Below the pieces are notes generated by a model. It saw nothing but the letters and a program-made list of their open reading frames with translations, was not told the origin of the DNA and ran no database searches. The translations under genes and the position numbers were made by a program. A stretch of 64,000 bases of DNA, from contig JAGGUZ010000005.1 of assembly GCA_021158225.1 (NCBI GenBank), forward strand, positions 18,882 through 82,881, written 5' to 3'. The stretch is from a bacterium. GTDB lineage: Bacteria > Patescibacteriota > Gracilibacteria > UBA1369 > PNNO01. This document shows, piece by piece, positions 1,714 through 50,738 of the stretch; position 1 is the first letter of the stretch, and each line of letters opens with the position of its first letter.

Positions 1714-2115
1714 ATGATGAAAAGTCTCAATCGGGTATCACTTCTCGGAAATCTTGTTGCGGATCCGGAAGTTAGAGAAACGCAAAATGGCAATAGTGTG
1801 GCCAATTTTGCAATTGCAACAAATCGGAGATGGAAAAATACCGATGGTGAGTTAAAAGGTAAAACTGATTTCCATAGAGTTGTCGCATGGAGAAAACTCG
1901 GACAACTTTGCGGAGAGTATCTTAAAAAAGGTTCAAGTGTTTATTTGGAAGGGCAACTTCAAAATAGAACTTACGATACCGATAAAGGAGAAAAACGTTT
2001 CATTACCGAAATAGTTGCTAAAGATATAAATATACTTACTTGGAAAAAAGGTAAAGAAGGTGCGGTGGATGCAGAAGTTGTTTCGCTCGAGGAAGACAAA
2101 AACGTTGAAGAATAA
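1714..2115 (+). CDS. ssb: single-stranded DNA-binding protein
   Basis: 133 aa with the OB-fold SSB pattern NRVSLLGNLVADPEVRETQNGNSVANFAIATNRRW...FHRVVAWRKLG and an acidic C-terminal tail. Confidence 0.9.
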   Translation: MMKSLNRVSLLGNLVADPEVRETQNGNSVANFAIATNRRWKNTDGELKGKTDFHRVVAWRKLGQLCGEYLKKGSSVYLEGQLQNRTYDTDKGEKRFITEIVAKDINILTWKKGKEGAVDAEVVSLEEDKNVEE

Positions 2116-39468: not shown

Positions 39469-41880
39469 ATGCCTCAACGACAAGAGAAAAATTCATGGTT
39501 ATCTCGTACAATCCTGAATAAGCTCATGAACATCACGAGTGATGAATGGCCACGTATAGCTATTTCTTGGAGTTTACAGTTTTTGTACAGAGCCGGTTTT
39601 ATTATAGGATGGACTGTTTTGTTATCAATTTTCGCCACTCGTTTTGGTATAATGGCACTTCCATATTTCTTTATTCTATACGCATTACTCGATATTCTTG
39701 GAGCGATCGGATATTCGTTTATTTTGGAAAGATTTTCCAAGGATATGATGATTATTATAACTGCACTCGGAGGAGCGTTATTGTTTCTTTTAGTGGGATT
39801 GCTGTCTTTCTATAGTGAAACGCTTTTTATATTTATAGCTATTGCAGGTTTGTCAGTTGTATTTACACAATTGTACATACTTAATTCCGGCTTTATTGAA
39901 GATTTATTCTCTCCATTGGAAAGTGAAAGAACATTTCCTTTAATAGAATCTGCCGAGACTATAGGAGGCATTGTTGGAGGCTTATTGATAACAGGTTATG
40001 TCGGAGTTTTGTCAGCGGGATATCTCTTGAATTTTTTGGTTGTGATTTTGATTATGTTCGTTCCGATTATGATTTTTCACAGGCAATTACTTAAAAAGTT
40101 GCCGTTTATCCACTTTAAAAAAAGACATAAAAAAACAGGAATTAATTTTGCGAAGATAAAAGAAAATTTAGGGCATATCAAGCGAATACCGTTTTTAAAA
40201 TTACTTCTTGTAGTTGTTATTTGCCAATGGGTTTTTTCCAATCTTCTTGAATTTCAATTCATAGAAGCACTATTTGGTCATCTACCCGAAGGTGCACACA
40301 TGGAAAAAGAACTAACATACGGACTTGGATCGTTACAAATACTCTTCCACTCGGTTGCTTTATTAATGCAACTTTTAGTTGCAAGCAGGATTATTTCATC
40401 TTTGGGAATTGTTTCATCTTTATTGTTACATCCTCTTGTAACGCTATTAAGCCTTGGGACTATGCTAATACGATTTGGTATGCCATCCGCAATTTTAACA
40501 AAACTGAATTACGAGATGACATTTACGATTTATAAGAATGCATATCATTCCTCGTATTATGCAATAGAATCTAAAATTCGAGAACAGGTACGCGAACTTC
40601 TGGAAGGATTCGCCCATCCCCTTGGAACTCTAGTTGGAATGGGAACGTTACTACTTCTTGAGCAATTTTTTCATGGAACAACATTTAATCAAAGCGTAAC
40701 CGTATTAATGATTGCAATTATGGGGATAATGCTGTTTGTAATCGTTAAAAATGACAGGAAGTATACTCAGATCTCAATTAAAAATTTACTTTATTCAAAA
40801 GATACGGCGGTACAATTAAATGCTGTGGAGATATTAGGACAAAAAGGTCATAAAAATGCTACCGAAATACTAACAAGAATGCTTAACGAAACGGAAATTG
40901 CCGACAAAGTTAAAATTAGGATCTTAAACACTTTGGGACATATGAAAGATCCAGAATCTCTTAGCGAAATTATCGATGCTTTGGAACATAAAAATCCCGA
41001 AATAAGAAAGGCTTCTCTTATAGCTTTGGAAAAATTTAATACATTTACGAAAAAAGAAACAAAACATCCGTTTTCGACACACAGGACAAATAATATTCTT
41101 AAAAAGATGTTTCTTGAAGAAAACGATTATGCAATTAAATCGTTGGTAATGGGAGTTTTGGCAAAACATAGTAGCAATAAAATAGTTCCATATTTATTGT
41201 CTCTTCTTAAGAGTGCAAAAGGATATCAAAAAGCGGACGCTATTCGCGTATGCGGTAATTTCCATGATATTTCACTTGTTCATTATCTTATGCCATTTTT
41301 AGAATCTGATGATCCGATTATAAAATCAAGGACGATTGTAGCTCTATGGCAATTTAAAAAACATCGAATGAAACTACTTCAAGAAATTAAGAATATGTTA
41401 TTTAGTAAAAATAAAGCTGATAGACTAGCAGCCTATTATATCCTTGGAGAAATAAATGCTTTACAAGAAAAAAATCGTCTACTTGATTTGTTGAAATCCG
41501 AAGATGAAGACGAAAAACTCGCCGTAGCCATAGCACTTGTTAAAATGAATATCCGTGAAGGAGTTCCTATAATTATAGAAAGGATCGTATACGACGAATC
41601 TTCTCGTAAGAATTTATTATATCTTCTTCAACTTACTCTTGGAAAACGTATGAAAAACTATATGCTTAGAGTGCTTAATCAAACAGTTTCTCTTTATATC
41701 AATCATATATTGTCGGAAAGTAATAAAAAAGTATTAGAAGAACTTGACACAAACACATTAATGAAGCTTCGAAGTGCATATGAACTTGTAAATGAACACG
41801 AAGAAGTGGAAAATGTAGATAAAGTATTAAGAGCTTCTACCAAACAATACAATCAGGAATTACAACTTAATCCAATTTAA
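39469..41880 (+). CDS. fusion of a ~12-TM transporter-like domain (ATP/ADP-translocase/MFS-like) with a C-terminal HEAT-repeat domain
   Basis: 803 aa. Residues ~30-430 hold ~11-12 hydrophobic helices. Residues ~440-800 hold repeated HEAT/PBS-lyase-like units (AVQLNAVEILGQKGHKNATEILTRML, VKIRILNTLGHMKDPESLSEIIDALEHKNPEIRKASLIALEKF, IKSRTIVALWQF...). The transporter subfamily is tentative. Confidence 0.6.
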   Translation: MPQRQEKNSWLSRTILNKLMNITSDEWPRIAISWSLQFLYRAGFIIGWTVLLSIFATRFGIMALPYFFILYALLDILGAIGYSFILERFSKDMMIIITALGGALLFLLVGLLSFYSETLFIFIAIAGLSVVFTQLYILNSGFIEDLFSPLESERTFPLIESAETIGGIVGGLLITGYVGVLSAGYLLNFLVVILIMFVPIMIFHRQLLKKLPFIHFKKRHKKTGINFAKIKENLGHIKRIPFLKLLLVVVICQWVFSNLLEFQFIEALFGHLPEGAHMEKELTYGLGSLQILFHSVALLMQLLVASRIISSLGIVSSLLLHPLVTLLSLGTMLIRFGMPSAILTKLNYEMTFTIYKNAYHSSYYAIESKIREQVRELLEGFAHPLGTLVGMGTLLLLEQFFHGTTFNQSVTVLMIAIMGIMLFVIVKNDRKYTQISIKNLLYSKDTAVQLNAVEILGQKGHKNATEILTRMLNETEIADKVKIRILNTLGHMKDPESLSEIIDALEHKNPEIRKASLIALEKFNTFTKKETKHPFSTHRTNNILKKMFLEENDYAIKSLVMGVLAKHSSNKIVPYLLSLLKSAKGYQKADAIRVCGNFHDISLVHYLMPFLESDDPIIKSRTIVALWQFKKHRMKLLQEIKNMLFSKNKADRLAAYYILGEINALQEKNRLLDLLKSEDEDEKLAVAIALVKMNIREGVPIIIERIVYDESSRKNLLYLLQLTLGKRMKNYMLRVLNQTVSLYINHILSESNKKVLEELDTNTLMKLRSAYELVNEHEEVENVDKVLRASTKQYNQELQLNPI

Positions 41881-41881
41881 T

Positions 41882-42241
41882 ATGGCAACAATAGAAGTAA
41901 TAAAAAATGCACCCGATACAAAAAAGAATTCTCAAACGGTTTTTCTTAAAGGAGAAATTGATAGAGATACAATAGCTAAATTAAGAGAGGCTATGGAGAC
42001 GATTTTGCCGACACTAGAAACGAAAACGTTAATTATAGATCTTGAGAATCTCAAATTCATCAATAGCGAAGGAATTGGATATTTAACCGATATTCATAAC
42101 AGATTAAATACTCTCGGAAAAAATGTTGTTATTCTAAAAGCGTCAGCTCGCATAATGGATATTTTTCAGCTTGTCGGACTTAATCAGATTGTTTCATGCT
42201 ATGCAACTGAAGAAGAAATGAATTCGGACATAAAATCTTAA
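41882..42241 (+). CDS. STAS-domain anti-sigma-factor antagonist (second RsbV-like paralogue)
   Basis: 119 aa with IDLENLKFINSEGIGYLTD, carrying the conserved Ser context. It starts 1 nt after the stop of the transporter-HEAT gene. Confidence 0.8.
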   Translation: MATIEVIKNAPDTKKNSQTVFLKGEIDRDTIAKLREAMETILPTLETKTLIIDLENLKFINSEGIGYLTDIHNRLNTLGKNVVILKASARIMDIFQLVGLNQIVSCYATEEEMNSDIKS

Positions 42242-42263
42242 TCAACTAAACTAAAACAAACAT

Positions 42264-43394
42264 ATGATTACATGGATTAGAAAAAGCGTAACGAGGAGAA
42301 TAGGATTATTACTTGTTTTGATAAGTGCCGGATTCGGATATATGACTTATTATTTTTGGAACAGTCCCCTTTCATCCCCAATTTACTATTCGTTTGCCAT
42401 AATCGGCGGATTTGTTCTTGTTGTATTTATTATTGTTTACAGCTTGATAAACAAACCTCTGAAAAAATTAACTAAACAAATGAAACTGCTTTTAACGGGC
42501 AGATCTTATAAAAGAATTACAACAAACAGAATTGATGAAATAGGAATAATCGCACAATTCTTTAATGAAATAACCGAAAATCTGGAGAATATCTCGAAAA
42601 AATTAAAAGAAGAGCAAAGGATGTCATCGGAACTTGAAATAGCAAGCTCTATTCAAAAGGCAATATTGCCAAATAAAAGTCCGGATATACCAAATTTAGA
42701 GGTTGTCGCCAAATCACGTTCGGCGGTTGAAGTTGGCGGAGACAGTTTTGATTTTATCCAGAGAAAAGATGCCACATATTTTTATATCGGTGATGTTACC
42801 GGGCATGGAAGTCCCGCAGCTCTTGTTATGATGATGGTCAACACTCTTCTGCATACATATTCGGAAATGTATTCAAGTGTTTACGATATAGTTGTGAATA
42901 CAAACAGAATTTTAAAACCCCGTATTAAGGCTGCTATGTTTATGACTATGGTTATACTTAAATGGGATCATCTAAATAAAAAAATGACATATGTCGGAGC
43001 AGGCCATGAATATATTTTAATTTACAGAAATAAAACCGGAGAAATTGAGGCAAAACCGGCAGGTGGAGTTGCTCTTGGAATGGTTCCGGATAACAGTAAA
43101 CTTGTAAAAGAACAAGAAATTAAGCTCGAAGATGGAGATATGATTATTTTATATACAGACGGAATTACCGAAGCAAGAAACGATAAAGGCGAAATGTACG
43201 GAATTGATAGATTTAAAGAAGCCATTAAAAACTACGCAACTCAATATGGTCCCGAGGGAGTTACCCATCATGTAGCACTTGATTTCTCTCAATATGTTGG
43301 AAACGCCGAACAAGAAGACGATATAACCCTTATGGTACTAAAATATACCGAGAAAAAAGAAGTTCAAACGGATAAAAGTACTAACTGGAAATAA
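42264..43394 (+). CDS. membrane-bound HAMP + PP2C (SpoIIE/RsbU-type) serine phosphatase
   Basis: Two TM helices and a HAMP-like linker (RIDEIGIIAQFFNEITENL). SpoIIE-domain motifs are ELEIASSIQKAILP, GGDSFDF, GDVTGHG, LYTDGITEA and DDITL. Confidence 0.85.
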   Translation: MITWIRKSVTRRIGLLLVLISAGFGYMTYYFWNSPLSSPIYYSFAIIGGFVLVVFIIVYSLINKPLKKLTKQMKLLLTGRSYKRITTNRIDEIGIIAQFFNEITENLENISKKLKEEQRMSSELEIASSIQKAILPNKSPDIPNLEVVAKSRSAVEVGGDSFDFIQRKDATYFYIGDVTGHGSPAALVMMMVNTLLHTYSEMYSSVYDIVVNTNRILKPRIKAAMFMTMVILKWDHLNKKMTYVGAGHEYILIYRNKTGEIEAKPAGGVALGMVPDNSKLVKEQEIKLEDGDMIILYTDGITEARNDKGEMYGIDRFKEAIKNYATQYGPEGVTHHVALDFSQYVGNAEQEDDITLMVLKYTEKKEVQTDKSTNWK

Positions 43395-43399
43395 TTTCG

Positions 43400-44422
43400 A
43401 TGAAAACAAAAGACTTCTATTTTGATTTGCCTAAAGATTTAATTGCACAAAATCCGGTATCTCCCAGAGATAGCTCTAAATTGATGGTTCTAAACAGGTC
43501 TAACAAAAGTATAGAGCATCATTTTTTTTATGAACTTCCAAAACTTCTTCCACGTAATTCGATTTTAGTACTAAACGATACAAAAGTTTATGCGGGAAGG
43601 CTTTACGTTACAATTGACAATAAAAAGGGTGAGCTCCTTGTTTTAAAAAAAAGATCAAATGATGTCTGGAAGTGTATGGTTAAGCCTGGTAAAAGATTCT
43701 CGGTCGGGAAAGATTTTATTATTGAAGGAAAAGAAGAAGAGTTAAATGCAAGTGTTCAAAATATAAACGAAGATGGTACGCGTGAAATTAAGTTTAATTT
43801 GAATACGGAATTACTTGATTGGATTGAAAATAACGGCTATCCCCCATTTCCACCCTATATTAAACATACACAAGCTTCATTCCAAGATTATCAAACAACA
43901 TACGCAAAAGATATTGGAAGTATTGCCGCGCCCACGGCCGGGCTTCATTTTACAGATAGAGTTTTCAATGAGCTTAAAAAGAAAAACATAGAAATTCTAA
44001 CCTTAACGCTTCATGTTGGGCGCGGAACTTTTCTTCCAGTAAAAGTTGATAACATAGAAGATCACAAAATGCATAGTGAATGGTATATGCTAAGCAAAGA
44101 AAATGCGGAGAAATTAAATATGGCAAAACGCCAAAACAAAGAAATAATTGCAGTTGGCACAACATCGGTTAGAACACTTGAGTCCAATTTTAAAAACGGA
44201 CTGTTCCATCCTGAAACAACCAATACAAACATATTCATATATCCAGGATATAATTATAAAGCAATTGATGGAATAATTACTAATTTTCATCTGCCGGAAA
44301 GCACGCTTATTATGCTTATAAGTGCGTTTGCTGAAAAAAAATTCATATTTAAAGCTTACGACGAAGCAATTAAAAACAAATACAGGTTTTATAGTTTTGG
44401 AGATTCAATGATGATTCTTTAA
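43400..44422 (+). CDS. queA: S-adenosylmethionine:tRNA ribosyltransferase-isomerase
   Basis: FYFDLPKDLIAQNPVSPRDSSKLMV, APTAGLHFT and AVGTTSVRTLES motifs. Confidence 0.95.
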   Translation: MKTKDFYFDLPKDLIAQNPVSPRDSSKLMVLNRSNKSIEHHFFYELPKLLPRNSILVLNDTKVYAGRLYVTIDNKKGELLVLKKRSNDVWKCMVKPGKRFSVGKDFIIEGKEEELNASVQNINEDGTREIKFNLNTELLDWIENNGYPPFPPYIKHTQASFQDYQTTYAKDIGSIAAPTAGLHFTDRVFNELKKKNIEILTLTLHVGRGTFLPVKVDNIEDHKMHSEWYMLSKENAEKLNMAKRQNKEIIAVGTTSVRTLESNFKNGLFHPETTNTNIFIYPGYNYKAIDGIITNFHLPESTLIMLISAFAEKKFIFKAYDEAIKNKYRFYSFGDSMMIL

Positions 44423-46830
44423 AGCCAATCGGGAACATATTTAGCCTCTTTAATTCCTGGTATTGAAAGTATTAAATCTATATCATCGCTGTTAAACTTA
44501 CCTCGATATAAATCCTTTATTTCCCCTCCCCCAGCAACAAAATGTTTAATTTGATTGTAACCTTTGTAGTAAAGCAAATCTTTTGTAAATCCACCTGCCT
44601 CGGATGTATCTTCAAGACCTCTTTTTACTTTAATTGTGTTTCTCCATGCTCTTTCCGGTGGAATTTTATAATCCAACATCTTTTCAAATACTTCCACAAA
44701 TGAATATTTCAATGCCAAATGAACTGCAAGTACTAAGGAGATTGATAAATAAAGATTTTTTTCTTCATCTCCTTTTTGAGTAATTATATTGTACATCGCA
44801 AGCCCCTCTTGCGTTTCCAAATAATTCGGTAATCCTCGATTAAATATTTCATACTCCTGAGATTTTCCATTTTCTGCTGTTAGAATATGAGTTTCAATTT
44901 CATGTATTATAAGGTTATCAATTCTTTTTTCAGTAAACAAAGCTCCTTTTCTTAAAAAAAGCCTGTTGTTTTTTCCGGCAATCGCATCGGAAACCATTTC
45001 TTCCTTAATTTTTACCTTCCATTTTAACAAACCGTATTTTTCGAATACTTTATCCATAATAACTTTCGCTTCTTCTGCAGTAATATTTCCTTTTTTACTA
45101 GAATAAGTAACAGAAGTTTCTTTTAACCAATTTTTTGAATTTTCAACAAGTTCTTCACTCGGCTTCCCATAAAGATCTATGGATGCATTAGTAAATTCTT
45201 CAGCGAAACCTCTAAATTCAAGCAACGCAATTTTTTTGGCAATTTCAAGTTTTTTCTTTTCAAAAAGCTTACCGAGATTTGTTGTGTCGGTTTGAATTTG
45301 ATTAAGATCTTTCCTTAAATCATAAAGATTGAATTTAAGTTCAGGATAAACAAATTGAGGATTTTTCTTAAAATTTTGAAAGAACTTTATACGTTCTTCT
45401 CCAAGATTAACAGGTCTTAAGTGATAAAGAAGCTTTAATTTTTCATCTATTTTGATAAGTTGCTGATCAATTTCGTTGTAATTTATCTTTCTCTTTTCAT
45501 CCAAAGTTTTTTTAAGTAACTTTTTATCTTGCTTTTCTTCTTTAGTTACATTTACATCCGGAAGCAGTTTCTTCTGAATTTTCTTAGACGGATCAATAAA
45601 AAAATTCTTTAAATCTCTACATCCAACTATAAGACTATAATTGTTCTTTGTTATTTTCTCTATATCTGCAACCGTTTGAATTCTTTTCCCGGCAATCGAT
45701 AATTTTAATTTTACGGTAGATTTTTCATCGTCATATTCATATTCATCTTTAAGCAAACTGGCCTCAATAGCGAATTGTTCATCAATAATTGTTCTTTGAT
45801 TACCCGGGTCAATCTCTGCCAAAACTCTTCTTGTCCCATCTTTAAGGTAAATATCAACCATTTCCTCGATTCCAACAACATTTTTACCGGAAACTTGATG
45901 AATATTCTTTTCTACAATATTCCCGAACATATCTTTTGCGATTCTAACCCCTTTTACCGGATTATTGACCTTCACTCCTTCAATCCTCTGAAGACGTTTT
46001 TTTAATGGAGCCAAATTGGCTATTTGCACTCCTAATCCAGCCCTGGCGTTAATCTCTAAAAGCACCGGACCAGAAGACTTATCTATAGATATATCCGTTG
46101 CCATATAACCAAGATTCGTAATAAGCTGACATTTAGATGCAATCATTAAAATATCATCCCAATAAGGGATTTTAAGTCCTTTAATCGGTCCGACCTCCGG
46201 GATTTCATCAATAATTTTATTTTTATACGAGATATAAGTTGTTTCCCCTTTTGCTATATCAATTCCAACACCAACAGCACCAAGATGTAAATTAGCCTTA
46301 CCTGCGGATTCTTTCGTAGGGAGCCTAAGCATTGCCATTACAGGGATAAGATTATGCACGACCACTCTAATATCCGGCAAACCTCTGTAAGAATAATTTC
46401 CGAGTGTATCATGAGAAATAATAAGCTGTTCAAAAAACGCACTGTCTCCAACATTTGAAATTGAATATCTTCCATCAAGAATATCCGATATATGATCTAT
46501 AATAATTTTTTTATCTAATTTCTTGCCGGAAGCGGTTATCCATACATCTTCACGCTTATTTGTTATAGGTATGATCCCCTCTCCTCCAAACCCATGATTT
46601 GGCTTTAATATAAAAGAATTTGGAAGCGACCCGGAATCGAATTTATCCAATTCTTCTTTTGATCTAATAGCAGTATATAATTTGGGGACAGGAATCCCTC
46701 TCGCAGAAAGGAATTTTTTTGTTTTAAGCTTATCATCCGCAAGCTTAATAGTCTTCTTTTTGTTATAGGGACGAATATATTGTAAATTTCGCGCATTTAG
46801 CCCTAAAATTCCTTTATCGTTGAAAATCAT
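44419..46830 (-). CDS. three-domain fusion: RimK-related ATP-grasp ligase + retropepsin-like (RimB/Zn_protease-like) domain + DUF1704 QEGLA-motif (MATCAP-like) metallopeptidase
   Basis: Residues 1-285: GILGLNARNLQYIRPYN, DDKLKTKKFL, FILKPNHGFGGEGI, LLEINARAGLG. Residues ~315-415: VVGIEEMVDIYL...LAEIDPGNQRTIID...LIVGCRDLKNFFIDPS. Residues ~560-803: HEIETH (643-648) and ETQEGLA (672-678). Confidence 0.8.
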   Translation of the reverse strand: MIFNDKGILGLNARNLQYIRPYNKKKTIKLADDKLKTKKFLSARGIPVPKLYTAIRSKEELDKFDSGSLPNSFILKPNHGFGGEGIIPITNKREDVWITASGKKLDKKIIIDHISDILDGRYSISNVGDSAFFEQLIISHDTLGNYSYRGLPDIRVVVHNLIPVMAMLRLPTKESAGKANLHLGAVGVGIDIAKGETTYISYKNKIIDEIPEVGPIKGLKIPYWDDILMIASKCQLITNLGYMATDISIDKSSGPVLLEINARAGLGVQIANLAPLKKRLQRIEGVKVNNPVKGVRIAKDMFGNIVEKNIHQVSGKNVVGIEEMVDIYLKDGTRRVLAEIDPGNQRTIIDEQFAIEASLLKDEYEYDDEKSTVKLKLSIAGKRIQTVADIEKITKNNYSLIVGCRDLKNFFIDPSKKIQKKLLPDVNVTKEEKQDKKLLKKTLDEKRKINYNEIDQQLIKIDEKLKLLYHLRPVNLGEERIKFFQNFKKNPQFVYPELKFNLYDLRKDLNQIQTDTTNLGKLFEKKKLEIAKKIALLEFRGFAEEFTNASIDLYGKPSEELVENSKNWLKETSVTYSSKKGNITAEEAKVIMDKVFEKYGLLKWKVKIKEEMVSDAIAGKNNRLFLRKGALFTEKRIDNLIIHEIETHILTAENGKSQEYEIFNRGLPNYLETQEGLAMYNIITQKGDEEKNLYLSISLVLAVHLALKYSFVEVFEKMLDYKIPPERAWRNTIKVKRGLEDTSEAGGFTKDLLYYKGYNQIKHFVAGGGEIKDLYRGKFNSDDIDLILSIPGIKEAKYVPDWL

Positions 46831-46848: not shown

Positions 46849-48402
46849 TTATTCCTCTTCGACATGACGAAGAACTTCTCTAAATCTTGCATATTCAAGC
46901 AATTTTAATCCCGGCCATCTACCAAGAAACACATTAAAGAAAATAATTAAAATAATCACTTCCGGATATGCGAGCATAAATCCTTGAAGTTGATTGATTT
47001 TAAATCCAAATACATCACCTCCAATTACAATATAAGCGATTATAGCAACCAGAACAGTTTGCAATGTTGCAATCATAGTTTGCTTAAAGCTTTTCCCTCC
47101 TTGAGCGCTAACAAATTTTTCGGTTAATGTACTTAAAATAAGCATAGGGAAAACTGAGAGCGAATAAAATTGCGAATCAAACAAATTAAATCTGATCGAT
47201 AAAATCAACATAAACAAAATGGCAACAGCGACGGATGTAAGAACAATCGCCATTCTTGGAACATAAAGTAGCCTATACCTCTTTAAAGCAATTCTGGTTC
47301 CCGTTCCTACCAAAAATATCACAAGAAGAGTCAAAAGTCCGAATTTTAGACCAAGAATCCAAAAAGTAAGTGTGATAATGGTTGGAGTATAAACTCCAAA
47401 AGTAGTTACTCCAACAACCTGTTTCATAATAGAAACAACAGTCGCAATAACAGGTAACATTAAAATTAAAATAACCGTATTTGCCGGTATTCCACTGTCT
47501 ATTAAGTAATTAACGAAATAGGACATAAAATTCCACAATTGAAGTTGCCCGGTTTGCGCATTTGTAAGCTCGTAATCATATCCGTTTTTTTCCATTCTGT
47601 TAATAAATTCATTTGTTGTCGCGCTCTCTATAAAGGCATATATTGCGGGCTCTTTTGCAGAAACTATATTTTTCGGTTTTAAGAGTTCATATTGACGCGC
47701 CAATTGTGTAGGAGTGTCATCGTTGTTAATTACAAGAATTGTTTTGTTTTCAAAAGTTAAAGTGTCATCTTGATTTGCCTGATTTTGCTTAACCCGAGAT
47801 AAGGCGTTAAGTCCGGAATTTCCTTCCGTCCATACAATTATTTCATCTATTTTTTTAAGATTATCCGTAGCTTCACGAAGCTTTCTTTCTAGAATTTCCT
47901 CTGTAATAAATTCAGTAGCACTGTCGTAGCTCTCGTAAACAACAATATCCGTATCTCTATCCCGAGCATAATTTTTAAAACCTTCAACTCTATCTTTAAT
48001 TTCAGCTTTATCGGTAATGAAAATTATGATTTTTTTATAAACAAATATATCTTTTGTTACCGTTTTTGTTTCTTTCCCATCATTAGCCGTGAGAGTAAGT
48101 GTTTTTTGACCAAGCGTAGTATAGCTATACACGACTTCTCGTCCTTCCTTTTTATTACCATCACCAAAATCCCATGTATAAGTTATATTTGCATTTTCAT
48201 CCGGATGCTTCGTTCCCGAAGCATCAAAAATTATATTCTTGTTTATTTGGACAGAACTACTCGCTGTTATAGCCGGCGTAAATGTTACCTCTTCCGGTTT
48301 TATACTTTCCACAGCAGGTTGATCTTGAGCAAAAACGCTAAATGGAGCAAGGTAAAAGAATAATGCTGATATGGCGACTAATTTTTTGATAGTTTGATGC
48401 AT
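46849..48402 (-). CDS. secreted PKD-domain protein fused to a 7TM module of the 7TM-transglutaminase-associated type
   Basis: Signal peptide LAPFSVFAQD and the PKD hallmark ITYTWDFGDGNKKEG...LTLTANDG. A ~170-aa unknown domain follows, then 7 TM helices starting LMLPVIATVVSIMKQVVGVTTFGVYTPTII and ...LKRYRLLYVPRMAIVLT. It ends 18 nt upstream of the ATP-grasp fusion gene. Confidence 0.7.
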   Translation of the reverse strand: MHQTIKKLVAISALFFYLAPFSVFAQDQPAVESIKPEEVTFTPAITASSSVQINKNIIFDASGTKHPDENANITYTWDFGDGNKKEGREVVYSYTTLGQKTLTLTANDGKETKTVTKDIFVYKKIIIFITDKAEIKDRVEGFKNYARDRDTDIVVYESYDSATEFITEEILERKLREATDNLKKIDEIIVWTEGNSGLNALSRVKQNQANQDDTLTFENKTILVINNDDTPTQLARQYELLKPKNIVSAKEPAIYAFIESATTNEFINRMEKNGYDYELTNAQTGQLQLWNFMSYFVNYLIDSGIPANTVILILMLPVIATVVSIMKQVVGVTTFGVYTPTIITLTFWILGLKFGLLTLLVIFLVGTGTRIALKRYRLLYVPRMAIVLTSVAVAILFMLILSIRFNLFDSQFYSLSVFPMLILSTLTEKFVSAQGGKSFKQTMIATLQTVLVAIIAYIVIGGDVFGFKINQLQGFMLAYPEVIILIIFFNVFLGRWPGLKLLEYARFREVLRHVEEE

Positions 48403-48554
48403 AATTTAAGCCATTTATATTGATGTACAAGAAGGATTCTATCAAAAGTGCCTAAAAAACTCAATAATCACCTTTGTTCAATTGCAATTTCGCCTTGTTT
48501 TTGCTATAATATTACGAAGTATAGATTCATTTTAGAATTTATTAAACTATAAAA

Positions 48555-50738
48555 ATGAAAAAAAGAATAAAAAGTATTTTTGCAACTATCGCCACTTTCG
48601 CTTTAGTGCTATCTCAAAGTAGCATGGCATTCGCAACTAACAGCAGTTTATTTAAGGTTGAAGCTTTCGGAGCCGATACGATCGCAGGATATACAACAAG
48701 AATTTACTCATCAAAAACACTTCCAAACAAAATTGTTGAATTCACTGTAAAAAAACCAAATGGAAACAGTTTAAATATTCCAATAAAATCAGATGACAAT
48801 GGAATAGCAGAATTCGAGTTATATGATTACCATACTAAAAAAGCGGGGACATATTCGATCTCTGCAAAATTAGAAAACGGATCTGAAGGGAAAATAAATA
48901 CATTCTATGTATTCCCTGATGAAGTATCAAAAGTATCTTCAGAAATAGAGGCTTCAAAACTCCTTGGAACAGCCGACGGTATAGATAAAATCTATTTCAC
49001 AATCACACTGAAAGATAAACTTGGCAATCCGATTAAGGGACATGAAATTAGCGTAATTTCAAGTAGAACAAAAGATAAGATTCAACTTATCTCGGAAACT
49101 CAATTCACGGATGCAAAGGGAGAAACTCTTTTCTCCGTAGCTTCTCCGGAAGAAGGAGTTTCCATCTACTCGTTTTTAGATGCAACATCAAATAAAGTCT
49201 TAGATAAAAGAGTGGAAATTGCTTACAGTACAATGCAAAATGCCGGAGGAGATATTAAAACCGCTTATGCAGCCGCAGGAGAAGTCGATAAATTTGTTTT
49301 CGAGAATTTACCAGCATCCATTACCGCAAATGCAGATACACCTTTTACTTTAACCGCAGTTGATTCCGATGGGAACACAGTTCCAAACTATTCCGGAACA
49401 GTTCATTTTTCTTCCGAAGGAGCAAACGGAGTCTATGCATCCTTACCTAAAGATTATAGCTTTGATGTCGATCTTGATACTGGAAGTCATGATTTTAGTG
49501 GACTCCAAACGTTTAATTTTGCTCAAGAAGGAATATATTCGATAGTAGCAACAGATTTGGATAATTTTACAATAAGAGGAGATACTGAAATTACGGTCGG
49601 CGCGTCCTCTACGCAACATTCGGCCGATAACACAACACAACCAAACACTTCAAGTAACGATTTGCAAATTACAAACCCATTGTCTGGAACATACAGCAGT
49701 AACGAACTTGTAATTAACGGAATAGCTCCTCTTGTTAGCGCTACAATTCAAATTTTCGATAATGGTAGTAATATCGGCTCTACAGAAGTACAATCGGATA
49801 ATACATTTTCATATACACCTTCTTCCATAGTGGATGGTCCTCATAAATTTTATGTTGTAATGGAAGATAGCGATGGAACAACTTTGGCTACTTCGGATGA
49901 AGTAAATATTACAGTTGATACAAGTGCTCCAACTGTTGAAGATGTTAAATTTTCCCCTTCTGCAGATATTAAAACCGGAGATGTTATAACGGTTACCGTA
50001 ACTTCAGAAGAAAATGTTTTTCAAGGGGCGGTAGTCTTTAATGTAGATATTGCAGAACTTAAAAAAGATGATAATGATCCTACAAAATATACAGCCTCAA
50101 TACAAGCACCGGACAAACCCGGAAGCTATCCGATTGATGTTGTCTTGGTCGATGAACTTGGCAATGAGGGGTCTTATGAAGATGTTGCAACTTTGGAAAT
50201 AGGTACAAATGGAAAAACGAATTTATTGAAAAATGGAGACAGCATAAATCCACTAGCTACCAAGGGAAATGAGCCCCCTGTACAAGAGAATCAAGCTCCG
50301 TCGGATGTATTTGGAGTAACCACAATATCTTCCGACTCCAAGGTAACGCTTTCTTGGCAAGCTTCAACCGATGACTCAAAAGTTGTTAATTATAAAATTT
50401 CTTACGGTTTAACCCCAACAAACCTTAATCAAACCGTAGAAACTTTTGATAACAAAACGACTTGGTATCTTCCCAACTTAACAAACGGAAACGAATATTT
50501 TTTCTCTTTGGTTGCCATCGATGACGAAGGAATTGAAAGCAAGAACCCAAGTAGCATAGTAAGTTCTATTCCATTTAGTCCAGCTCCTGTGTTTGTTAAA
50601 CCGGAGCCTAAAGTTGAACCTATTGTTAATCCTGTCGCTCCGAAAATGCAATCAACCGGACCAGAAGAATTGTGGTTTATATTACTTTCGCTCGGGCTAA
50701 CTCAGCTTTACTTTAAGTTTAAGAAAAAAATGTGCTAA
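48555..50738 (+). CDS. large cell-surface protein with Ig-like (Big) domains, an FN3 domain and a C-terminal membrane anchor / sorting-like signal
   Basis: Signal peptide ...SQSSMAFA, several Ig-like repeats and an FN3 segment (APSDVFGVTTISSDSKVTLSWQASTDDSKVVNYKISYG). The C-terminus is QSTGPEE + hydrophobic helix + KFKKKMC. Confidence 0.7.
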   Translation: MKKRIKSIFATIATFALVLSQSSMAFATNSSLFKVEAFGADTIAGYTTRIYSSKTLPNKIVEFTVKKPNGNSLNIPIKSDDNGIAEFELYDYHTKKAGTYSISAKLENGSEGKINTFYVFPDEVSKVSSEIEASKLLGTADGIDKIYFTITLKDKLGNPIKGHEISVISSRTKDKIQLISETQFTDAKGETLFSVASPEEGVSIYSFLDATSNKVLDKRVEIAYSTMQNAGGDIKTAYAAAGEVDKFVFENLPASITANADTPFTLTAVDSDGNTVPNYSGTVHFSSEGANGVYASLPKDYSFDVDLDTGSHDFSGLQTFNFAQEGIYSIVATDLDNFTIRGDTEITVGASSTQHSADNTTQPNTSSNDLQITNPLSGTYSSNELVINGIAPLVSATIQIFDNGSNIGSTEVQSDNTFSYTPSSIVDGPHKFYVVMEDSDGTTLATSDEVNITVDTSAPTVEDVKFSPSADIKTGDVITVTVTSEENVFQGAVVFNVDIAELKKDDNDPTKYTASIQAPDKPGSYPIDVVLVDELGNEGSYEDVATLEIGTNGKTNLLKNGDSINPLATKGNEPPVQENQAPSDVFGVTTISSDSKVTLSWQASTDDSKVVNYKISYGLTPTNLNQTVETFDNKTTWYLPNLTNGNEYFFSLVAIDDEGIESKNPSSIVSSIPFSPAPVFVKPEPKVEPIVNPVAPKMQSTGPEELWFILLSLGLTQLYFKFKKKMC

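Follow-up and report, generated by a model that had tools for sequence, protein, structure and literature searches.

Within a 64,000-nucleotide stretch of contig JAGGUZ010000005.1 (assembly GCA_021158225.1, positions 18,882 to 82,881; hereafter the window), which stems from a bacterium of the Gracilibacteria, we analysed a gene whose 803-residue product fuses an ATP-grasp ligase domain, a retropepsin-like domain and a MATCAP-like (DUF1704) metallocarboxypeptidase domain. This fusion gene is the second gene of a strictly conserved two-gene operon: in all 76 related loci with upstream DNA, a gene encoding a seven-transmembrane (7TM) protein was detected by tblastn directly upstream on the same strand. 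The 7TM protein is RloB-like, which relates the locus to the Pseudomonas Rlo system, consisting of the secreted poly-Glu-cleaving retropepsin RloA, the 7TM protein RloB with an inactive transglutaminase domain plus RloC, an ATP-grasp protein of the cytoplasm (Lormand et al., mBio 2025, PMC12239564). We read the two genes as a membrane-associated peptide-tail module, a variant of the Rlo/Rim type in candidate-phyla bacteria (Peregrinibacteria), in which the Glu-Glu (EE) tail of the 7TM partner would be the likeliest acceptor; to this reading as a whole we give an even chance.

The N-terminal domain was matched by Pfam ATPgrasp_ST (PF14397, residues 14-284, E 4.8e-67, 226.5 bits vs a gathering threshold of 31.4) and by the NCBIfam model TIGR02291, named 'alpha-L-glutamate ligase-like' (residues 4-303, E 1.4e-85, 287.1 bits vs an equivalog cut-off of 314.2), the latter alignment spanning 307 of 317 model positions. 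Its motifs comprise K34, K76 with a GFGGEG loop, D153-I-R155, N180-L-H182-x-G184, D246 and E259-x-N261, and in the alignment they pair one by one with the motifs DKL, VVKxxxGxxGxGV, DIR, SNLHRGG, GVD and EVNxxPG of E. coli RimK. Residue conservation was counted in 143 aligned full-length fusions with 30-100% identity to the query; K34, K76, E134, D153, R155, R169, N180, D246, E259 and N261 were each kept in at least 137 of them, most in 140-142. From these conserved catalytic residues the ligase domain is predicted to be active. A Foldseek search with the AlphaFold2 (AF2) model of the full-length protein recovered RimK (5zct, E 1.6e-8). The domain is nevertheless of the RloC type and not RimK proper. 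It shares about 40% identity with RloC of Legionella and Aeromonas over its whole length and, like these, has no counterpart of the N-terminal domain of RimK (residues 1 to about 90). The RimK model TIGR00768 reached 46.3 bits only, vs a cut-off of 143.4, with the match confined to residues 6-100.

At the C-terminal end, Pfam MATCAP/DUF1704 (PF08014) matched residues 485-802 (E 4.5e-57, 194.1 bits vs a gathering threshold of 27) and TIGR02421 (QEGLA) residues 455-802 (191.9 bits vs an equivalog cut-off of 338.65). The sequence-only reading had recognised this DUF1704 domain by HEIETH and ETQEGLA (residues 672-678), which holds; its start, however, is not at about residue 560 but at about 447-455. 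A profile of the family matched human MATCAP (7z5g, E 1e-19), thereby placing HEIETH over HEIGTH and TQEGLA over TEEGLA, and Foldseek with the full-length model found the same structure (E 3.5e-13, target TM-score 0.65, 346 aligned columns) at about 22% identity to the eukaryotic MATCAP fold. In MATCAP, E281 and E316 are required, as established by mutation, and the MATCAP/TMCP enzymes trim Glu-rich tubulin tails and strip polyglutamylation (PMC10499314). The HExxxH plus E site was kept in 142 of 143 full-length homologues, and based on this conserved site the metallopeptidase domain is predicted to be active as well. The alignment of the catalytic residues in both enzymatic domains, as well as a superposition of the predicted structure on RimK and MATCAP, had been put forward as checks on the sequence-only reading, and the alignments and the Foldseek matches are in its favour.

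The domain between ligase and carboxypeptidase could be seen solely by comparing profiles with profiles and by its fold. No Pfam or NCBIfam model matched it, even when the segment alone was searched at E up to 10, none of 120 close homologues carried a precomputed PF05618 match, and its profile gave matches only to Ddi1, below threshold, among the PDB sequences. A profile of the whole protein searched against the PDB sequences recovered MATCAP but neither RimK nor RloA. Its assignment as a RimB/RloA-type retropepsin came in part from distant relatives. Four proteins drawn from a representative library of 1.84 billion proteins (P0172, P0174, P0178 and P0197) carry an ATP-grasp domain followed by a domain passing the PF05618 threshold (34.7-38.1 vs 27 bits), and P0174 is itself an ATP-grasp, PF05618 and MATCAP triple fusion. 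Comparison of the middle domain of the query family with the corresponding domains of these relatives by hhalign gave 99.5% probability (E 2.4e-23), pairing 'AKIDTGA...IDxxLA' and 'IIGRxxLxxFLVDPSK' with AEIDPGNQRTIIDEQFA and LIVGCRDLKNFFIDPSKK of the query, respectively. The domain alignment of the PF05618-positive relatives in turn matched the solved structures 9g58, 9g59 and 2pma. Furthermore, an AF2 model of the middle domain alone (pLDDT 83.4) had RloA (9g58, E 2e-6, TM-score 0.65) as its best Foldseek match, followed by RloA2 (9g59) and Lpg0085 (2pma), with the retroviral-protease-like domains of Ddi1 and HIV protease ranking after these. The domain is about 40 residues shorter than canonical PF05618 domains, an insert being absent. 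The retropepsin-like call at residues 315-415 or so, made from the sequence alone, is thus borne out by hhalign and Foldseek.

The replacement of the usual DTG by DPG, pointed out in the same reading, could be confirmed at residues 341-343. Among the 120 closest homologues the triad has the consensus D-T/S-G (D in 105; T in 75, S in 30 and P in 15; G in 76), and the nearest relative (87% identity) shows APG. In the 143-sequence set the position of the Asp is occupied by D in 79, N in 43 and S in 10 cases, and D[TS]G is kept in only about 22. In 60 close homologues several residues off the triad are invariant (E323, D350, K374, K376, R383, T386, G403, R405, D406, L407 and F410); in the 143 sequences each of these is the majority residue, none being strictly invariant. 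Judging from these sequences, the retropepsin domain is probably a pseudo-protease in the query and in most relatives. With the triad degenerate and this domain probably not working as a protease, the role of the eraser would fall to the MATCAP domain.

Taken together, the three-domain architecture proposed earlier is supported by Pfam and NCBIfam for the outer domains and by hhalign and Foldseek for the middle one, and the open reading frame lies exactly at positions 44,419 to 46,830 on the minus strand, as had been reported. With such E-values and more than 120 full-length homologues, a chance resemblance is far out of range. We found no signal peptide and no transmembrane segment in the fusion protein by sequence prediction, for which reason it is predicted to be cytoplasmic. 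The AF2 model of the full-length protein had a pLDDT of 85.5. PADLOC returned zero defence-system matches for the fusion protein and for the 7TM partner. Automatic database names of the protein include 'tyrosine/phenylalanine carboxypeptidase domain-containing protein', 'DUF1704 domain-containing protein' and 'alpha-L-glutamate ligase-like protein/TIGR02421 family'.

A fusion of this kind could have arisen from an assembly chimera or from gene calling that joined adjacent genes, and in some relatives the MATCAP part is in fact a separate, overlapping downstream gene. However, an identical protein is present on a 151-kb contig, more than 120 homologues match it over 100% of its length, and the reading frame runs unbroken across the conserved linker. 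When each GTDB species was represented by one genome, the scan gave at least 80 loci, all full-length, which demonstrates the conservation of the fusion across the clade; the essential function argued for earlier from a minimal genome goes beyond what this conservation shows. The genomes bear the labels Peregrinibacteria, Peribacteria, Gracilibacteria or Patescibacteria, the exceptions being a few named only 'bacterium' and one Nitrospirota, and closed chromosomes of 1.3-1.5 Mb are among the genomes with the fusion. In the clustered library mentioned above, full-length fusions reached down to 30% identity. The sequence-only reading had raised beforehand the possibility of a chimera seen in no other genome; with the identical copy, the full-length homologues and the species-level genomes at hand, an artefact is ruled out for all practical purposes.

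About 10 of the 143 homologues showed Trp at otherwise invariant Gly columns (query G80, G83, G85, G184, G403, G676, G738 and G757), and the fusion genes of two loci (L088, 809-3136; L089, 1224-3623) contain 31-35 TGA codons in frame. The Trp-bearing homologues are UGA-recoded relatives from the Gracilibacteria (Gly, code 25-type) that are mistranslated in the databases. Invariant Gly columns reading Trp provide independent support for UGA encoding Gly.

The partner gene lies 18 nucleotides upstream of the fusion gene on the same strand. Its membrane part was matched by 7TM_transglut (PF14402, E 8e-29). The best NCBIfam match of the protein, 'osmotic stress tolerance membrane protein RloB' (NF052267, 79 bits vs a cut-off of 900), covers the 7TM part only, and the inactive transglutaminase domain of RloB (PF14400) was not matched in the partner, the N-terminal part of which consists of a PKD domain and a further region. 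This region, about 180 extracellular residues (approximately 120-300) without a Pfam or NCBIfam match, sits where RloB of proteobacteria carries its inactive transglutaminase domain, and may constitute either a diverged module or a different one. There was no separate RloA-like gene beside the operon in the window.

According to hydropathy and the positive-inside rule, the N-terminal domains of the partner face outside and a tail of 24 residues lies inside. The protein ends with ...RFREVLRHVEEE in the window, and the pattern ...RFRExxxHxEE(E) was present at the C-terminus of the partner in 76 of 76 loci. Within the 75 intact genes, the tail ends in EE in 45, EEE in 28 and EEEE in 2 cases. The remaining locus (L080, 4028-5516; CP064978.1, with the label complete genome) has its rloB-like gene interrupted by a frameshift, owing either to faulty assembly or to decay into a pseudogene; even so, the C-terminal segment has ...KHAEE at its end. 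Even the 7TM protein beside a UGA-recoded fusion (31% identity) ends with ...FQEEE. The EE terminus is rare elsewhere: about 2 of some 430 other open reading frames of at least 200 residues in the same loci end in this way. We considered whether the two codons are kept merely as the ribosome-binding site (Shine-Dalgarno sequence) of the following gene. This is ruled out, since the Glu codons of the tail vary synonymously (138 GAA and 44 GAG, in 22 patterns) and the EE tail is kept where the gap to the next gene amounts to 80-1700 nucleotides; both facts point to conservation at the protein level. The SSB gene of the window (1714-2115, plus strand) ends with ...EEDKNVEE and is the only other open reading frame of at least 120 residues in the window with an EE C-terminus, which makes it a possible alternative acceptor.

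An EE tail is not a general property of RloB, as the proteins of two proteobacterial rlo operons inspected end with ...AKARS and ...GKDK; there, the protease is periplasmic. The EE terminus is a mark of the triple-fusion clade in particular. E. coli ribosomal protein S6, described as the natural acceptor of RimK, which extends its C-terminus, ends with ...SEE, and by analogy the EE tail of the partner is the kind of tail that RimK extends on S6. With the upstream 7TM partner and its conserved EE terminus, the substrate that the sequence-only reading had to leave unknown becomes a concrete candidate.

In other candidate-phyla lineages the gene organisation differs, with the 7TM, ATP-grasp-retropepsin and MATCAP components staying together. 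In one of them a PKD-7TM gene is followed by an ATP-grasp-retropepsin gene and by MATCAP as a separate overlapping gene; in another, a short 7TM protein precedes a triple fusion whose PF05618 domain is canonical. Two further loci (L090, 4255-10842; L091, 4267-10848), both set between yebC-ruvC-galT and ruvA-ruvB, encode a short 7TM_transglut protein and an ATPgrasp_ST plus RimB-like fusion followed by 1-2 more ATP-grasp genes; after these, L091 has a separate MATCAP gene, and none was called in L090. The MATCAP/QEGLA proteins of proteobacteria (L092, 5113-7104; L093, 4169-7913) are fused to, or lie beside, an N-formylglutamate amidohydrolase-like (FGase) domain, and on an Aminobacter plasmid a MATCAP-family gene is followed by an ATP-grasp gene of the glutathione-synthetase type, an association of the two families that is of another kind than the one described here. 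MATCAP-family genes thus partner ATP-grasp ligases repeatedly and in several forms. The separate, uncharacterised genes of proteobacterial operons to which the sequence-only reading referred are now partly characterised as the Rlo system (PMC12239564), and neither of the two proteobacterial rlo operons inspected contained a MATCAP gene.

The features of the two-gene operon are compiled in Table 1.

Table 1. Features of the fusion gene and its upstream partner (window positions; residue numbers refer to the respective protein)
Feature	Position	Strand	Evidence or remark
Fusion gene, 803 residues, ATG start: RloC-type ATP-grasp, retropepsin-like domain, linker, MATCAP-like domain	44419..46830	-	Open reading frame list and profile matches
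ATP-grasp ligase domain, RloC/TIGR02291 type, residues 1-303	45922..46830	-	Pfam, NCBIfam, RimK alignment, Foldseek
Retropepsin-like (RimB/RloA, PF05618-related) domain, residues 316-415	45586..45885	-	hhalign, Foldseek
Degenerate aspartic-protease triad D341-P342-G343	45802..45810	-	Homologue alignments
Lys/Glu-rich linker of low model confidence, residues 416-446	45493..45585	-	AF2 model; MATCAP gene of split relatives starts at this point
MATCAP/DUF1704-type metallocarboxypeptidase domain, residues 447-803	44422..45492	-	Pfam, NCBIfam, profile, Foldseek
HEIETH, H643/E644/H648 (residues 643-648), metal-binding/catalytic HExxxH	44887..44904	-	Aligns with HEIGTH of human MATCAP
Q674-E675-G676, E675 being the predicted third metal ligand	44803..44811	-	Aligns with EEG motif (E316) of MATCAP/TMCP1
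Upstream partner, 517 residues: signal peptide, PKD, extracellular region of about 180 residues, 7TM_transglut (RloB-like), cytoplasmic tail	46849..48402	-	
PKD domain, partner residues 45-119, predicted extracellular	48046..48270	-	Pfam
7TM_transglut membrane domain, partner residues about 308-495, probable N-out/C-in topology	46918..47481	-	Pfam, hydropathy
Partner C-terminal tail R-H-V-E-E-E (CGT CAT GTC GAA GAG GAA, then TAA), candidate ligase acceptor	46852..46869	-	
Divergent intergenic region, likely promoter region of the two-gene operon	48403..48554	.	Sigma-70-like matches at background level

In the mechanism we propose, the first gene would provide a receptor-like membrane protein that carries a PKD domain outside the cell, a 7TM domain of the RloB type and, on the cytoplasmic side, a short Glu-Glu(-Glu) tail. 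The ATP-grasp domain of the fusion protein would activate a C-terminal carboxylate as an acyl-phosphate and then add alpha-linked amino acids, and the MATCAP HExxxH domain would trim residues back from the C-terminus. The degenerate retropepsin domain might serve as a module for dimerisation, for binding of the acidic tail or for regulation of the ligase, as RimB regulates RimK (PMC11957791). For the amino-acid specificity, the identity of the substrate, the topology of the tail and the physiological role we infer the following: glutamate would most likely be the residue added, the acceptor would most plausibly be the EE tail of the 7TM partner itself, reaching into the cytoplasm, and the role, by analogy with Rlo, is possibly in envelope or osmotic stress. 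A ligase and an opposing carboxypeptidase within one polypeptide would then determine how long a poly-Glu tail on the 7TM protein becomes. A writer and eraser of a C-terminal tail, already suggested from the sequence, is upheld as the most economical interpretation. More tentatively, and in our opinion rather doubtful in its full extent, reversible polyglutamylation of the EE tail by a single ligase/MATCAP enzyme may represent a prokaryotic 'tail code' coupling sensing by the PKD domain to a tunable acidic tail; it may also reflect the ancestral context of the eukaryotic ATP-grasp/MATCAP tubulin cycle and give a hint at the role of Rlo in pathogens.

Several observations weigh against modification of the partner's tail by the fusion protein. 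Both enzymatic domains miss the equivalog cut-offs of NCBIfam (287 vs 314 and 192 vs 339 bits) and are accordingly divergent members of these families, not equivalogs. The pTM of the full-length AF2 model is 0.49, at which the geometry between the domains is unreliable. The location of the tail in the cytoplasm is suggested by a simple hydropathy and positive-inside analysis together with the name of the family. In the split and canonical-retropepsin variants from candidate phyla the 7TM protein ends with ...LKE, ...DAD, ...IFG or ...TEK, so that the tail as substrate may hold for the triple-fusion clade only. Moreover, ligase activity of Pseudomonas RloC was left unproven in the Rlo study (PMC12239564), and the Pseudomonas genetics would fit equally well an export of the RloC product to the periplasm by RloB.

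The last point leads to the main rival. The ATP-grasp domain might synthesize free poly-alpha-glutamate or a short peptide, which would be exported or sensed by the 7TM protein and the cytoplasmic excess of which would be degraded by MATCAP (together with the retropepsin where this is active), the EE tail acting as a docking or priming element. RimK is described as making poly-alpha-Glu in vitro, with RimB stimulating it. In Pseudomonas the Rlo proteases are periplasmic and the defects of mutants without the RloA proteases are rescued by mutations in rloB or rloC (PMC12239564), which fits a product that crosses the membrane. In addition, the tails of the 7TM proteins are non-acidic in several related candidate-phyla modules, and the extra ATP-grasp genes of L090 and L091 suggest a longer or mixed peptide product. 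On the other hand, free-polymer turnover leaves unexplained why EE is invariant in all 76 triple-fusion loci and absent from proteobacterial RloB. A transporter-like feature of the 7TM_transglut domain is not established, and a cytoplasmic carboxypeptidase tethered to the synthase would amount to a futile cycle, unless it served for length control. We regard the synthesis of a free polymer as the less likely reading. It is still less probable that the enzyme modifies a soluble protein with an acidic tail such as S6 or SSB in a RimK/RimB-like manner, with the 7TM protein only anchoring or regulating it. The ATP-grasp motifs align with those of RimK, E. coli S6 ends in EE and the SSB of the window in ...NVEE; however, the ligase domain is of the RloC type (TIGR00768 46 vs 143 bits, N-terminal domain of RimK missing) and it is strictly the 7TM gene, and neither rpsF nor ssb, to which the fusion gene is linked, both of which make a modification of S6 or SSB less likely. 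A search with E. coli S6 found no rpsF in the window, including the surroundings of the SSB gene, or in the related loci. Modification of the partner's own tail is the reading we prefer.

Around the operon, scans for promoters and terminators gave background levels only. Downstream, queA converges on the fusion gene and overlaps its end by 4 nucleotides. Just upstream of queA, a STAS-domain protein and a membrane-bound HAMP-SpoIIE/PP2C phosphatase form a partner-switching pair (41882-43394, plus strand), preceded by a second open reading frame of 803 residues (39469-41880, plus strand) with the unusual architecture of a weak MFS transporter match plus HEAT repeats. On the other side, a gene divergent from the operon (48555-50738, plus strand) encodes a surface protein of 727 residues that combines Big_1, Big_13 and fn3 domains with a hydrophobic anchor at its C-terminus. 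It was detected by tblastn in 49 of 80 related loci, probably reflecting general synteny.

MATCAP was recognised as a tubulin tail-trimming enzyme only in 2022-2023. Here, a bacterial MATCAP domain and an ATP-grasp ligase share one polypeptide, and the pair is tied to a single membrane protein whose Glu-Glu terminus is invariant. Ligase, eraser and candidate substrate constitute a three-component system that could be rebuilt in vitro from two genes, and the Rlo system, essentially proteobacterial according to its description in 2025, is extended to candidate-phyla bacteria, where its substrate may be readable from the sequence. The middle domain is a natural example of a retropepsin that has probably decayed to a non-catalytic module. 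The occurrence of ATP-grasp ligase and MATCAP peptidase together suggests that this combination predates eukaryotes. If the proposal is true, a polyglutamylated 7TM tail would be the ancestral working context of the ligase/MATCAP cycle acting on eukaryotic tubulin.

No paper joining MATCAP or DUF1704 with ATP-grasp was found in our literature search, and RloB and RloC were mentioned only in the Pseudomonas Rlo paper (PMC12239564), which names neither MATCAP nor carboxypeptidase. This paper left the Rlo mechanism unsettled and reported 96% of the RloB hits to be proteobacterial. The general idea of prokaryotic peptide tagging by ATP-grasp enzymes with opposing peptidases is credited in PMC3495828 to Iyer et al. 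2009.

One of the closest known systems is Rlo. The ligase belongs to the same ATP-grasp subfamily (about 40% identity to Legionella and Aeromonas RloC, full-length TIGR02291 match), a 7TM_transglut partner is encoded immediately upstream, and both have a domain from the RimB/RloA family with the retropepsin fold. Unlike in Rlo, the extracellular part of the partner consists of PKD and a further region in place of the inactive transglutaminase domain of RloB, the tail of the 7TM protein has EE at its end, a MATCAP carboxypeptidase comes in addition and the host belongs to the candidate phyla. Furthermore, the retropepsin is internal, cytoplasmic, degenerate and fused to the ligase, whereas RloA is a separate, secreted and active protein with a signal peptide.

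With the RimK/RimB system the locus shares the ATP-grasp ligase chemistry and motifs, as far as these can be read from the sequence, a retropepsin-like partner (RimB recognises poly-Glu tails and regulates the ligase) and an acceptor ending in Glu-Glu, S6 in one case and the candidate tail in the other. RimB binds RimK and stimulates it (Little et al., JBC 2025, PMC11957791). A ligase-protease fusion is also known in nature (RimBK), but its protease is N-terminal and active, while the retropepsin domain described here is C-terminal to the ligase and degenerate. RimK, in contrast, possesses an extra N-terminal domain and belongs to TIGR00768, the cut-off of which is missed here, and neither a membrane partner nor MATCAP occurs in that system.

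The eukaryotic MATCAP/TMCP1-2 enzymes (KIAA0895L/KIAA0895), which work together with TTL/TTLL ligases in the tyrosination/glutamylation cycle of tubulin, have a homologous fold and the same HExxxH plus E(E/Q)G site. There, as proposed here, peptidase and ATP-grasp ligase act against each other on a C-terminal tail that is acidic and rich in Glu, and the TMCPs are also deglutamylases. The ligase described here is, however, RloC/RimK-like and not TTL-like, both activities reside in one polypeptide, and there is no tubulin or microtubule-binding context. The loci of the 'flavohemoglobin expression-modulating QEGLA motif protein' (TIGR02421) contain the same MATCAP/DUF1704 family and, on the Aminobacter plasmid, an ATP-grasp neighbour. 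Unlike the operon described here, the proteobacterial representatives are associated with FGase-like domains and have neither a 7TM partner nor a retropepsin, and the protein of the window scores 192 vs 339 bits against their model. In comparison with all of these, the locus is a ligase-peptidase module of the Rlo/Rim type with a putative MATCAP eraser fused in, a probably decayed retropepsin and a RimK-style candidate acceptor tail on its membrane partner.

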